Source: an uncultured Candidatus Saccharibacteria bacterium (GTDB taxonomy: Bacteria > Patescibacteriota > Doudnabacteria > UBA920). Taken from it: DNA of 64,000 nt. The position numbers were made by a program, and so were the translations under genes. Shown piece after piece: positions 6,702-21,881 of this stretch. Numbering within the stretch: the first letter of the stretch is position 1; each line of letters begins with the position of its first letter. The stretch spans positions 964,048 to 1,028,047 of the forward strand of contig CAYYWQ010000001.1 in the NCBI GenBank assembly GCA_964474825.1. Direction: 5' to 3'. The notes below the pieces were generated by a model. That model was not told where the DNA came from and did no database searches. It saw only the letters and a list, made by a program, of their open reading frames with translations.

Positions 6702-7778
6702 CTAAGGACGAATTAAACTGGCAGCTTTTGGGGTGTTAACTACCCGAGCAAGCACAGGATTAGACTGCAATGATTCACAAAAGTCATTGTTCTCCAATTC
6801 CGATGCAATTTGCCCAATAATATTCTTTTGTCTTGGCATAACCAATTTCTCCTTAAGCAAAAAGTTTAAATTTAACTCTTCCTGTCCGGGCAGCATGGAA
6901 ACAATAATCATGGGAAGGTGTTTTTGTAATGCTTCGGCAACAGAAAGCCCACCCGGCTTGGTTAAAAAAATGTTGGCAATGGCATAGAGCTCTTCCATGG
7001 GCTTATAGAACCCGAGTATGGAAATATTAGGCTGCTTAAATCTTTCTGCTAATTTTGCTGTAACTTCTTTATTGTTACCGCAGACAACAATTGTATGCCA
7101 ACTTTGTTGTTTAACTAATTTTTCAAGCAATTTATAATTTAATCCAATACCGAGCGACCCCGCGGCAACCAAAATAACTTTACTTTCCAGCGCAATATTA
7201 AGCTTGCCGCGAACAACTTCTTTATTTATGACTGCTGCTGGTTTTAAATTAAAACCTGTAACAAAAATTTTCTGCTCCGGCACTCCCAAAGCAAGCATCT
7301 CCTGTTTTTGCTCTTGAATGTTTACCAAATAAAAATCCGCCTGGTCATAGAGCCAATATTTATGCAAATGAAAGTCGCTAAAAGCAATACCAAACTGTCC
7401 GGTAAAAATTTTCTGTTGTTTTAAAAACGCTACCACGCCCGAGGGAGCGGTTTGGGTGGTAATTATAACGTCTGGCTTAAATTCCAAAATAATTTTTAAA
7501 GTTTCTTTGTAATTTCTGGCTGCAATTTTTAACCGAAACGGCATACTAAGCTTGATAAATAAACTGTTCTTGTAAAAAAACCGCCACAGCCATGGCGCTT
7601 TGCTAATCATAAAAATATGAATCTTGGCGCTAATACTAATTAGCATTCCTTCCTGTGCCTTGTATACATCTGTTAAACGAACTTCAAGGCCGGCATCCGT
7701 AAAAGACCTGCCGATATTCTCGGCAATGGATTTGTGCCCCATTCCAACCGCAGTATATAAAATTAGAATTTTTTTCAT
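6702..7778 (-). CDS. GT28-family glycosyltransferase (MGDG synthase / UgtP / MurG-like)
   Basis: N-terminus MKKILILYTAVGMGHKSIAENIGRSF is typical of the diacylglycerol glycosyltransferase/MurG superfamily. It has a C-terminal glycosyltransferase half. Confidence 0.55.
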   Translation of the reverse strand: MKKILILYTAVGMGHKSIAENIGRSFTDAGLEVRLTDVYKAQEGMLISISAKIHIFMISKAPWLWRFFYKNSLFIKLSMPFRLKIAARNYKETLKIILEFKPDVIITTQTAPSGVVAFLKQQKIFTGQFGIAFSDFHLHKYWLYDQADFYLVNIQEQKQEMLALGVPEQKIFVTGFNLKPAAVINKEVVRGKLNIALESKVILVAAGSLGIGLNYKLLEKLVKQQSWHTIVVCGNNKEVTAKLAERFKQPNISILGFYKPMEELYAIANIFLTKPGGLSVAEALQKHLPMIIVSMLPGQEELNLNFLLKEKLVMPRQKNIIGQIASELENNDFCESLQSNPVLARVVNTPKAASLIRP

Positions 7779-12037: not shown

Positions 12038-12724
12038 TTATTTAAACAACTTCTCCAATTTTTCTACAGTCAACCCCGAAAAATCTTTTACCACCAAATT
12101 CGCGTGTTTTAAATCTTGCGGTTTGTTGGTGGTAGCTATGGCAACCACTTTCATTTTGGCCCGCTGCGCCGCCTTTATACCATTAAGCGCGTCCTCAAAT
12201 ACCACGCAGTTCTTTGGTTTCATATTTAAAAGACCGGCAGCCTTTAAAAAAACTTCCGGATTGGGCTTGCCTTTGGTTACGTGGGAAGCATTTACAATAT
12301 GTTTTAAAAATTTCCGTGTTTTTGTGCTGCCCAAAACAAAAATAACATTTTCGTGCGGCGCCGAAGTTGCCAAAGCCCTTTTCACGCCGTGTTTTTCTAA
12401 ATTAGCTAAAAAATTCACCAGCCCTTTTACCGGGCGAATGTGCGGACGGAAAAGTTTCCTGTATAAAGCGTCTTTTTCTTTTCCTAATTTTTTTATTTCC
12501 TGTTCCGAAAGTTTAGTTTTAGAAAAACGTTTAATAATTTCAGATCCAACCCTGCCGTTTAAGTATTGTTTGTAGTAATGCAAAGTTAAATTAAAATCCA
12601 ATTTCTTAGCTATATGCACCCAAGACTTAAAATGATAATCAGAATTGTCAACCAGCACCCCGTCCATGTCAAAAATTACCGCGAACTCGTTTTTATTAGT
12701 TGTAACTTTTTTACCCGTTCCCAT
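12038..12724 (-). CDS. HAD-superfamily hydrolase (beta-phosphoglucomutase-like subfamily IA)
   Basis: FDMDGVLVDN motif I plus downstream HAD motifs. Confidence 0.8.
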   Translation of the reverse strand: MGTGKKVTTNKNEFAVIFDMDGVLVDNSDYHFKSWVHIAKKLDFNLTLHYYKQYLNGRVGSEIIKRFSKTKLSEQEIKKLGKEKDALYRKLFRPHIRPVKGLVNFLANLEKHGVKRALATSAPHENVIFVLGSTKTRKFLKHIVNASHVTKGKPNPEVFLKAAGLLNMKPKNCVVFEDALNGIKAAQRAKMKVVAIATTNKPQDLKHANLVVKDFSGLTVEKLEKLFK

Positions 12725-12924
12725 TTTTTTACCTCAGCCTCTCTTTTTAATGCTTTACTTAAACTCCTAAATTTTTCAAAGTAGATTATTTTCCCACCTC
12801 CTCTACTCCTAACATACTTAGACCCCTTGCCACTATTGTGAATCAACTCACGATGCTTCAGATCATTGGTGCTTCCGCAATACAAGCTCTTGTCTTTACA
12901 ACGAAGAATGTAAAAATAATGCAT
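12676..12924 (-). CDS. GIY-YIG nuclease family protein
   Basis: YFYILRCKDKSLYCGSTNDLKHRELIHN...YFEKF pattern. Its 3' end overlaps the annotated HAD start by 49 nt. Confidence 0.7.
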   Translation of the reverse strand: MHYFYILRCKDKSLYCGSTNDLKHRELIHNSGKGSKYVRSRGGGKIIYFEKFRSLSKALKREAEVKKWERVKKLQLIKTSSR

Positions 12925-17613: not shown

Positions 17614-17665
17614 AAGAAAAACGCCCAATCTATTTGGGTGTTTTTCTTTTTTATGATAGTAGCCA

Positions 17666-17708
17666 TGCCCCTCGACTACGTCTTGCTTCGCAAAACTCCG
17701 CTCGGGAC
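17666..17708 (-). repeat. tRNA-associated short motif S (GTCCCGAGCG-N22-GTCGAGGGGCA), copy C
   Basis: Reverse complement of 17666..17708 reads GTCCCGAGCGGAGTTTTGCGAAGCAAGACGTAGTCGAGGGGCA. It lies downstream (minus strand) of tRNA-Ala(GGC), after an A/T-flanked hairpin at 17710..17745. Confidence 0.6.
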
Positions 17709-17746
17709 AAAAATAAAATACCGACCAAAGGTCGGTATTTTATTTT

Positions 17747-17820
17747 TGGTGGACCTGGGGGGAATCGGACCCCCGACTAATCCATGCCATGGATCCGTAT
17801 TACCATTATACTACAGGCCC
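17747..17820 (-). tRNA. tRNA-Ala(GGC)
   Basis: G3:U70 wobble pair in the acceptor stem, anticodon loop ATGGCAT, T-loop TCCGATT, and CCA. Confidence 0.8.
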
Positions 17821-20767: not shown

Positions 20768-20834
20768 AAGCTCCTTTACTTAAACGCATCTTTGAGTTAA
20801 AATTATTCACAGTTCTTATATCTTAAACTTATAT

Positions 20835-20908
20835 GGGCCTATAGTAAAGTGGTATTACGCGGCATTCGCATTGCTGAGGCGGGAGTTCGATTCTCCCTAG
20901 GTCCACCA
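20835..20908 (+). tRNA. tRNA-Ala(CGC)
   Basis: G3:U70 in the acceptor stem, anticodon loop TTCGCAT, T-loop TTCGATT, and CCA. Confidence 0.8.
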
Positions 20909-21038
20909 CTCGACTCCCTTTGGCTAACGCCAAAACTCGCTCGTGGCTTCGGCTTTTGGGAAGCCTCAACCAAACCACGATTGTTAGAGCGGGTCGAGTG
21001 TCCCGAGCGAGAAGCGCCAGCAACGAGTCGAGGGGCAA
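20909..21038 (+). ncRNA. tRNA-associated structured element, long form (copy A)
   Basis: Starts at CTCGACTC right after the tRNA CCA. Contains two hairpins that covary with copy B, a conserved CTCGCTCGTGG block, a long-range stem (5' CTCGAC pairs with a 3' GUCGAG), and ends in GTCCCGAGCGA...GTCGAGGGGCAA. Confidence 0.5.
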
Positions 21039-21108
21039 AAAAATACGTTTTGCGTTTATTCAATTCAAAAAATAAAATACCCAACCTTAAGGTTGGGTAT
21101 TTTATTTT

Positions 21109-21132
21109 GTCCCGAGCGAAGTCGAGGGGCAA
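21109..21132 (+). repeat. tRNA-associated short motif S (GTCCCGAGCGAAGTCGAGGGGCAA), copy A-short
   Basis: Preceded by the hairpin AAAATAAAATACCCAACC-TTAA-GGTTGGGTATTTTATTTT (21068..21108). Confidence 0.6.
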
Positions 21133-21167
21133 TGATATTATTTTTCTTTGGGCTAAAAAGTAAAAAT

Positions 21168-21881
21168 CTATCTAAAAAAAGTTTTTCTAATATTCTGCAC
21201 CTCGTGCATAAAGGCGGATTCTTGTTCGCGGCGGGGATAGGGGAGGGTAAGGTTAAAAATTTGTTCTAGCTGGCCGGCCTTCATTAGCATTATTCTGTCA
21301 GCGAGCGTTACAGCTTCTTCTATGGAGTGAGAAATCATGACAATAGTCTTTTTGGTTGCTTTCCAAATTTTATATAGATCTTTGTGCAGCTCTTCTGTGG
21401 TTACCGCGTCCAGTGCGGAAAAAGGCTCATCTAACAACAAAACTTTTGGGTCCACTGCCAAAGCCCTGGCCAAGCCCACACGCTGGCGCTGGCCGCCGGA
21501 CAATTCGTGCGGATACTTTTCCACTAAATCCTGAAGTCCCACCATTTCTATATATTTAAAACTTTGTTCCTGAACTTTTTTTGGGTGTGTATTTATAACT
21601 TTAAGGCCCAAAGCCACGTTTTCGTAAACATTTAGCCACGGAAAAAGCGCGCCGCTTTGAAAAACCATAGCAACGTCTGCGGGTTTTTCTACTGTACCAC
21701 TAGATTGCTCTTCAAGTCCGGCGATAATTTTTAAAATTGTAGATTTACCACAACCCGAAGGCCCAACAAGACAAAAAAATTCTCCGTCTAATATATTAAA
21801 ACTAACATCAACCAAACTTGGTTTGGGGTTATTAGAATAAGTCTTACTAACCTTGTCGAATTTTATTATTGTTTGGTCCAT
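21168..21881 (-). CDS. ABC transporter ATP-binding protein (nitrate/sulfonate/taurine NitT/TauT family)
   Basis: GPSGCGKST Walker A, LSGGQRQRV signature and LLLDEPFSALD Walker B. Confidence 0.9.
   Translation of the reverse strand: MDQTIIKFDKVSKTYSNNPKPSLVDVSFNILDGEFFCLVGPSGCGKSTILKIIAGLEEQSSGTVEKPADVAMVFQSGALFPWLNVYENVALGLKVINTHPKKVQEQSFKYIEMVGLQDLVEKYPHELSGGQRQRVGLARALAVDPKVLLLDEPFSALDAVTTEELHKDLYKIWKATKKTIVMISHSIEEAVTLADRIMLMKAGQLEQIFNLTLPYPRREQESAFMHEVQNIRKTFFR

Follow-up and report, generated by a model that had tools for sequence, protein, structure and literature searches.

Single-domain GIY-YIG nucleases of the Ssn family (about 94 aa, CDD cd10448; Chenal et al. 2025, Nat Commun 16:2388, PMC11893778) bind hairpin repeats, called NTS in Neisseria and, more generally, Ssn-related motifs (SRMs); in 71% of the Ssn homologues, such repeats are found on the flanks of the gene for the nuclease itself. 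These enzymes cleave single-stranded DNA just 5' of the hairpin and on one strand only, have no action on double-stranded DNA or RNA, and SsnA of Neisseria does not bind RNA. The authors of that study likened the NTS-gene-NTS layout to insertion sequences and to the pairing of repetitive extragenic palindromes (REPs) with REP-associated tyrosine transposases (RAYTs), and they listed Sphingomonas among the repeat-rich genera (PMC11893778). SegB, a free-standing GIY-YIG homing endonuclease encoded in the tRNA cluster of phage T4, is inherited preferentially together with its flanks (PMC2330249), and theta ribozymes, which resemble the hepatitis delta virus (HDV) ribozyme, sit downstream of tRNAs of gut phages (PMC10879173). 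Here we describe a hairpin unit, S, and a ~130-nt long element that contains it, both lying next to tRNA genes in a stretch of 64,000 nucleotides (the window) from an uncultured Candidatus Saccharibacteria bacterium (contig CAYYWQ010000001.1, positions 964,048 to 1,028,047). We favour, as the more probable reading, that these elements are gene-less remnants of a selfish nuclease cassette, or sites of its nuclease, rather than an RNA dedicated to tRNA processing.

S is a hairpin in which a basal stem of 5-6 bp closes a core of the form GAGCG-NA-GTCGA (12 nt) or GAGCGA-(variable distal hairpin)-GAGTCGA. The core is constant across loci, and the basal stem varies with compensation (gtccc/ggggc, cgtctc/gagacg, cgtgcc/ggcacg, cgcact/agtgcg and gtcct/aggac were all seen). 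This was quantified on 44 matches to GAGCGNNGTCGA in genome loci, taken with no condition on their flanks and with the matches to the search pattern left out: 77.7% of the cells were paired, compared to 61.4% in shuffles, and 49 cells were changed on both sides, compared to 16. None of 500 shuffles reached the observed values, and slid registers all gave much lower ones. In one possible reading, the core has a bulged T and two tandem G.A mismatches that surround G-C and C-G pairs, with, putatively, a GNA triloop on top; readings as an HDV-like, hammerhead or hairpin ribozyme or as a kink-turn were dropped by inspection, since the core fits none of these consensus structures. S is not an intrinsic terminator, the sequence that follows it being A-rich or mixed with no T run. 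Nested units were also observed (L027 at ~1759-1810; L250, L251 and L261, in the interval between the tRNA and the nuclease gene), with a short S as the distal hairpin of a bigger one or several cores stacked in one long hairpin.

The exact S motif was sought in contigs representing one genome per species. Among the matches listed, it was present in more than 115 loci (designated below by L numbers) of many phyla, about 20-25 of the listed matches being chance ones in GC-rich coding DNA. Its bearers are Patescibacteria (Doudnabacteria, Saccharibacteria and others), Acidobacteriota, Sphingomonadales, metagenome-assembled genomes (MAGs) of gammaproteobacteria, Chloroflexi, Planctomycetota, Omnitrophota, Verrucomicrobia and Armatimonadota. 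A scan of viral contigs yielded mostly chance matches in GC-rich coding DNA, together with copies of alphaproteobacterial type, and showed no tRNA-linked phage copies.

When the open reading frames (ORFs) of 115 loci were clustered, no protein recurred besides translations of the repeat itself, and neither a transposase nor an integrase was found, with no dedicated transposase profile run. The cut-off of 90 aa used in this clustering had hidden a GIY-YIG gene, which a motif search then revealed. With this search, followed by a profile made from its hits, at least 17 loci, representing three or more phyla, were found to have a GIY-YIG gene that starts ~10-70 nt 3' of S and lies on its strand. 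The encoded proteins have 82-96 aa, nearly all of which is covered by PF01541 (E 1e-14 to 1e-19), i.e. they are single-domain nucleases. The gene is frameshifted, truncated or interrupted by an in-frame stop in L005, L043, L046, L070, L085, L021 and L096.

The association also holds in the reverse direction. Eighty metagenome loci were picked only for similarity to the protein type of bacteria of the candidate phyla radiation (CPR), using a profile from an alignment of four CPR sequences, and 73 of them had enough upstream sequence. A same-strand tRNA or transfer-messenger RNA (tmRNA) gene ended within 400 nt upstream of the nuclease gene in 26 of the 73 (36%). The S core was present within 250 nt upstream in the sense orientation in 16 (22%) and in the antisense orientation in 16, compared to 23 of 792 background windows (2.9%; odds ratio 9.4, p 1e-8). 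Thirteen loci had the start CCA-YTCGAYT, and reading the spacers disclosed that many of the protein-selected loci have a complete long form between the CCA end and the start codon. An extended -10 box, TGNTATAAT, was also present in 13 of the 73 loci (compared to 2.5% in the background), usually at 15 nt from the start codon; in several CPR loci it separates S from the gene, and S then lies outside the nuclease mRNA. The box starts 15 nt before the ATG of many CPR-type GIY-YIG genes (metagenome loci L236, L237, L240, L241, L244, L246 and others), a spacing that suggests leaderless transcripts.

The S-linked system is like the Ssn/SRM system in that it comprises a single-domain GIY-YIG protein of ~90 aa and oriented hairpins of 20-50 nt with a GCGAAGC-like tip, which lie beside the gene and also occur as scattered solo copies. 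The likeness extends in sphingomonads to the layout: a plus-strand S, the GIY-YIG gene and a minus-strand S, i.e. inverted copies on both sides of the gene. S is preceded there by CCGTTC and forms convergent doublets. In the sphingomonad loci L009, L019, L061 and L076, the synteny of the S-flanked gene with the next one is conserved, and six-frame translation shows no stop between the two in that frame; the gene directly 3' presumably encodes a TrmJ-type tRNA methyltransferase. S differs from SRMs in its core, which shows what look like tandem G.A mismatches and a bulged T, and in its position in CPR bacteria and Acidobacteriota, where it adjoins the CCA ends of tRNA and tmRNA genes and is confined to the upstream side of the nuclease gene. 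Both kinds of repeat are found in L058, a Sphingomonas MAG, which has canonical Ssn-type repeats (CGTCATTCCGGCGAAAGCCGGAATCCAC and CGTCACCCCGGCGAAGGCCGGGGCCCAG) at 328, 2633, 4985 and 7585 alongside its S units; one of the Ssn-type repeats adjoins a different GIY-YIG gene (2697-2942). A single genome may therefore harbour two repeat/nuclease pairs.

In CPR bacteria and Acidobacteriota, S comes after a tRNA or tmRNA gene and shares its strand. Its position was downstream, on the strand of the tRNA or tmRNA, in 28 cases, and the relation was another one in 4. At 29 sites linked to a tRNA or tmRNA, taken from the window and from the genome loci, the register of the helix that precedes S was analyzed: this helix opens at C75 of the CCA end in 19 and at position 72/73 in 6, and it closes on the base just before TCCC, alternative registers giving ~0-1 consecutive pairs. 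In AT-rich genomes this helix resembles the tRNA's own terminator, as it does in the window at 17708-17748 and 41531-41551. Long forms open with CCA-YTCGACTC in at least 11 loci. The bases with which the element opens after CCA, YTCGACTC, are also those of the T-loop/T-stem in numerous tRNAs and tmRNAs (GGTTCGACTCC; e.g. L021, L053 and window 20880-20916), which may be chance or a clue to site recognition. We considered the CCA or ACCA that follows S in some Acidobacteriota as a target-site duplication and rejected this idea, its occurrence being inconsistent. Another GC-rich hairpin, containing CCCTGCGAAGCCTTGGCGGAGCAGGG, is conserved just 5' of tRNA-Ala or of a tRNA-like end in related CPR genomes (L005 at 1130-1170, L096 and L007) and is not enriched in the window; nor is a second motif, AGCCTTGGCGRAG, seen 5' of tRNA-Ala in relatives.

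The copies in the window and the features that they adjoin are the following.

12676-12924, minus strand: gene of a single-domain GIY-YIG nuclease (82 aa), with 54% identity to its S-linked counterpart in L011 (Doudnabacteria).
17666-17709, minus strand: unit S, 3' of tRNA-Ala(ggc), bearing a distal hairpin.
17708-17748, minus strand: AT-rich, terminator-like hairpin P1, which begins at C75 of tRNA-Ala(ggc) (minus-strand gene, 17747-17820) and reaches the first G of S.
20835-20908, plus strand: tRNA-Ala(cgc); the closing stem of copy A takes its first pairs from C75 and A76 of this tRNA (20907-20908).
20909-21038, plus strand: copy A of the long element, an inverted doublet of hairpin units without a nuclease ORF.
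20905-20947, minus strand: unit S' of copy A, gccacGAGCGA-(hairpin)-GAGTCGAgtggt, with a basal stem made from the ACCA of the tRNA plus C.
20942-20979, plus strand: spacer hairpin of copy A, CGTGG/CCACG around GGCTT-TTGGG-AAGCC (20951-20965).
20999-21038, plus strand: unit S of copy A, TGTCCC-GAGCGA-(variable)-GAGTCGA-GGGGCA.
21066-21109, plus strand: AT-rich, terminator-like hairpin CAAAAAATAAAATACCCAACC/GGTTGGGTATTTTATTTTG, whose last base is the first base of the next S.
21109-21131, plus strand: short unit S, GTCCC-GAGCGAAGTCGA-GGGGCA.
37977-38053, plus strand: tRNA-Val(tac), directly 5' of copy B.
38054-38186, plus strand: copy B of the long element, with its unit S at 38141-38186, ending 9 nt before tRNA-Phe.
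41531-41551, plus strand: hairpin P1, CAATCAGCC/GGCTGATTG, beginning at C75 of tRNA-Cys (gene at 41457-41532).
41551-41573, plus strand: variant unit S, GCCCC-GAGCGTAGCCGA-GGGGC, 12 nt 5' of tRNA-Leu(taa).

A previous reading of the window, made from the sequence only, had proposed two ~130-nt elements that start directly after a tRNA CCA. Both were confirmed at the positions of copies A and B: CTCGACTC, with which each copy opens, comes immediately behind the CCA of tRNA-Ala(cgc) in A and of tRNA-Val(tac) in B. When aligned, the two show 81% column identity. Of five copies of the 3' motif S that had been counted, four are exact matches to GTCCCGAGCG-N(2-30)-GTCGAGGGGCA, at 17666-17708 (minus strand), 21000-21037, 21109-21131 and 38143-38185, the coordinates given earlier being off by 1-2 nt; none of 100 shuffles gave any match. 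The fifth, at 41551-41573, is a variant, GCCCCGAGCGTAGCCGAGGGGCG, in which the U.G pair is replaced by C-G. Two copies do end 9-12 nt before the next tRNA, as had been noted (9 nt before tRNA-Phe for copy B and 12 nt before tRNA-Leu for the copy at 41551), but the claim that S always lies within 100 nt of a tRNA does not hold for the copy at 21109, which is 200 nt from the nearest tRNA end. At the level of the family, the tie to tRNAs stands in CPR bacteria and Acidobacteriota and fails in the sphingomonads, where the same motif is found away from tRNA genes. In total, the window has four tRNA-linked sites and one extra S, none with a nuclease ORF; these are therefore solo or decayed copies. 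Just 3' of the copy at 21109, TGATATTAT (21133-21141) resembles an extended -10 box.

AT-rich terminator hairpins also lie directly 3' of window tRNA genes (17614-17660, 41673-41710 and 21066-21109). Their 5' arm begins within or just after CCA (AAAATAAAATACC…GGTATTTTATTTT type) and S, where present at such a hairpin, opens on its last base. ARAGORN found 11 tRNA genes in the window. One more, tRNA-Phe(GAA) at 38196-38501, was missed because of a group I intron inside it (~38218-38468, in the anticodon loop; Rfam RF00028, 76 bits; exons checked). Two neighbouring genes were noted as well: the one at 37635-37937, just 5' of tRNA-Val, specifies a small zinc-ribbon protein with an RNHCP domain (PF12647, E 1e-29), and a 251-aa ORF lies at 38519-39274, just after the intron-bearing tRNA-Phe. 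The latter has only weak N-terminal helix-turn-helix matches (E ~1e-3) and could be a homing-type or transposase-like DNA-binding protein.

Two hairpin units in inverted orientation, together with a spacer hairpin, make up the ~130-nt long element. In copy A the 5' half is itself a unit S, read on the minus strand, and RNAalifold pairs the 5' and 3' halves of the element with each other; the corresponding minus-strand unit of copy B is degenerate, with GAGTGA in place of GAGCGA. The distal hairpin of the minus-strand unit of copy A (20919-20934) and the spacer hairpin are the two internal hairpins in which compensatory changes had been reported. These changes are real, four predicted pairs being changed on both sides among five CPR copies. 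The long-range terminal stem is equally real and longer than had been described: it takes in the tRNA, whose C75 and A76 pair with the TG just before TCCC. The inverted-doublet structure accounts for the block order, the terminal stem and the compensatory changes described in the sequence-only reading. The folding energies of the element are by themselves unimpressive (z-scores of -1.7 to -4.7 for RNA and near 0 for DNA); the case for structure rests on the comparison between copies.

Comparison with relatives points to gain and loss of the element. The Doudnabacteria contig L005 is syntenic with 16.7-20.8 kb of the window (RlmH is 85% identical). In L005, tRNA-Ala(ggc) is followed by a long form and a decayed GIY-YIG gene, and tRNA-Ala(cgc) only by CCA-CTCG and then a terminator; in the window the situation is reversed, tRNA-Ala(cgc) having the long form and tRNA-Ala(ggc) only a hairpin and S. 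Furthermore, copy B, which follows tRNA-Val, is closer to the elements that follow tRNA-Ala in L005 and L096 than to copy A. A copy of 11-18 nt of the tRNA or tmRNA 3' end was found beyond the cassette in L053, L021, L036, L094 and L023, sometimes with another hairpin unit next to it; no such repeat was present beyond the element at the four window sites.

The sequence-only reading had named three candidate roles, i.e. a tRNA-operon processing module, a ribozyme-like spacer and the footprint of a tRNA-targeting mobile element. The last of these is favoured because of the inverted doublet, the link to the nuclease gene, the presence or absence of the element between relatives and the duplicated tRNA or tmRNA 3' ends at some loci. 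S is a hairpin repeat that goes with very small single-domain GIY-YIG nucleases (~80-100 aa) of one clade. Other genomes have the full cassette, in which a tRNA or tmRNA gene is followed by a hairpin starting inside its CCA, by S and by the nuclease gene; in the long form, this first hairpin is a second S unit on the opposite strand plus the spacer hairpin. On the function of the cassette we make the following proposal. By analogy with Ssn and NTS, the nuclease would bind the S hairpin in single-stranded DNA and nick nearby, and this nicking, or recombination at the tRNA 3' end, may spread or maintain the cassette. The protein encoded at 12676-12924, the only GIY-YIG protein of the window, is a candidate for the trans-acting partner of the window copies.

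Several observations weigh against this proposal. The predicted DNA hairpin energies are no better than those of shuffles. No S lies beside the GIY-YIG gene of the window, and none of the window copies adjoins a nuclease gene. Among the protein-selected loci, only about a fifth have an S core, and the core was found downstream of the gene in only 0-1 of 63 CPR-type loci, which differs from the two-sided layout of Neisseria and would fit an RNA leader too, as would be the case for the loci in which S abuts the start codon (S end 0-3 nt away). The SRM pattern HGTCWYN(0-2)YYVSBRHN(0-5)WNVSBRGN(0-2)RNCYNB, which finds canonical SRMs in L058, L082 and L100, matches none of the S units and no position of the window. 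Among solved structures, the best hits are UPF0213 proteins, at E 2e-8 for the S-linked protein and 4e-4 for the L058-type one. Membership of the S-linked proteins in the Ssn family is accordingly uncertain, given the failure of the SRM pattern, an identity of 32% to the GIY-YIG protein that lies beside a canonical SRM in L058 and the likeness to UPF0213.

We considered the possibility that the element acts as RNA, as a tRNA 3' trailer and, in full cassettes, as the 5' leader of the nuclease mRNA. It could then sequester the CCA end and direct processing (RNase III and RNase P being examples of the enzymes), or regulate how the nuclease is translated, perhaps with the nuclease binding its own leader. 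Such a role would explain the strict same-strand position 3' of tRNA and tmRNA genes, the pairing of CCA in the first stem and the restriction of the CPR hairpins to the upstream side of the ORF, as well as the G.U pairs of the sense strand and the loci in which S closely precedes the start codon. Moreover, the two window copies located between co-oriented tRNAs, with a gap of 9-12 nt to the next one, must be transcribed. The covariation had been taken as an argument for a functional RNA; it is real, but alone it does not argue for RNA, being equally expected for a hairpin that is recognized as single-stranded DNA. A role at the DNA level is favoured by the presence of units on both strands, by the inverted copies that surround the gene in sphingomonads and by the -10 box between S and the gene, which in several CPR loci places S outside the nuclease mRNA. 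In addition, the copies at 17666 and 21109 come after terminator-like hairpins, Neisseria SsnA does not bind RNA (PMC11893778), and the element matches no Rfam family: Rfam 15 at the gathering threshold, and at E ≤10 on 20800-21200, gave only tRNA and terminator-like chance hits. Taken together, we regard an RNA role as unlikely, though still the most serious competitor of the nuclease-cassette reading.

A second alternative is that S belongs to an ordinary family of extragenic palindromes or terminators, comparable to REPs and to bacterial interspersed mosaic elements (BIMEs), that spreads by other means and lies near GIY-YIG genes by chance. The likeness to REPs and to REPINs, their doublet form, is indeed appreciable: S units are short imperfect palindromes, intergenic and often beside terminators, they form inverted doublets able to fold into long hairpins, and they occur in mosaic clusters; as with RAYTs, an enzyme presumed to be single-strand-specific is encoded beside some copies. 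In Acidobacteriota and in one tmRNA-linked metagenome locus, a CTCGCTCRTGG-hairpin sub-module is repeated 2-4 times in tandem inside the long element, which becomes a mosaic (L033 at ~7080-7200, L001, L021, L306). Yet, the association with GIY-YIG genes is two-way and extends across phyla, and no other protein family recurred in the loci upon ORF clustering. REPs are species-specific and not tied to tRNA 3' ends, whereas the S core is kept across phyla while its stems vary. S also lacks the GTAG head (the preceding bases being GAGT, GAAT, TGGT, TTTT or GTTC) and a T run behind it; the only terminator-like hairpins at S sites are the AT-rich ones just ahead of S, at 17708-17748 and 21066-21109. 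No transposase of the Y1 HUH type was observed, without a dedicated transposase profile being run. Chance proximity of a REP-like family thus appears quite improbable. It is hardly credible that the long element is a ribozyme whose self-cleavage just behind CCA generates the tRNA 3' end, in the way that HDV-like theta ribozymes do (PMC10879173): the element does start exactly at CCA, has conserved G/A-rich internal loops and shares its place directly after a tRNA with those ribozymes, but it resembles them in neither sequence nor structure and shows no sign of catalysis, it matches no Rfam ribozyme model (HDV-like, hammerhead, twister, pistol or hatchet) even at E ≤10, its fold is an inverted repeat rather than the nested double pseudoknot of HDV-like ribozymes, short forms have an unrelated AT-rich hairpin in place of the whole 5' half, and S also occurs far from tRNAs and on both strands.

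Returning to the nuclease cassette, its nearest thematic precedent is SegB, whose GIY-YIG gene likewise resides in a group of tRNA genes. Unlike the S-linked proteins, which are no more than a catalytic domain, SegB possesses a separate domain for DNA binding; its substrate is double-stranded DNA, and it lacks hairpin repeats. The cassette also shares with islands that integrate into tRNA or tmRNA genes the exact 3'-end position and, in several loci, the duplicated 3'-end segments beyond the insert; it differs from them in that no integrase recurs in the loci, the insert measures only 0.1-0.5 kb and no direct repeat is found at the window copies. The report on Ssn nucleases makes no mention of tRNA, tmRNA, Patescibacteria or Acidobacteria (PMC11893778). 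Our literature searches found no paper on a tRNA-linked mini GIY-YIG cassette, and literal sequence searches of the literature matched only unrelated primers.

These findings replace the attractive but unsupported idea of a new tRNA-processing RNA or ribozyme with a reading that can be tested, and they extend the newly described pairing of a mini GIY-YIG nuclease with a hairpin repeat to CPR bacteria and Acidobacteriota. Compared to Ssn and SRMs, the hairpin core is distinct, the protein subgroup is different, and the precise linkage to tRNA and tmRNA 3' ends has not been reported. We tentatively suggest, as a possibility that falls somewhat short of an even chance, that a second nuclease-hairpin family exists beside Ssn/SRM, in which UPF0213-like mini GIY-YIG nucleases with their own GA-rich hairpin form cassettes of 0.1-0.5 kb that home to tRNA and tmRNA CCA ends in CPR bacteria, Acidobacteriota and other phyla, perhaps through recognition of the folded end of the tRNA gene together with the hairpin in single-stranded DNA. 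If the nuclease does cut single-stranded DNA at S, this would be a new specificity among the few site-specific single-strand DNA nucleases, and it would explain a class of repeats that yields spurious ORFs (e.g. PFVPSEVEG) in many genomes.

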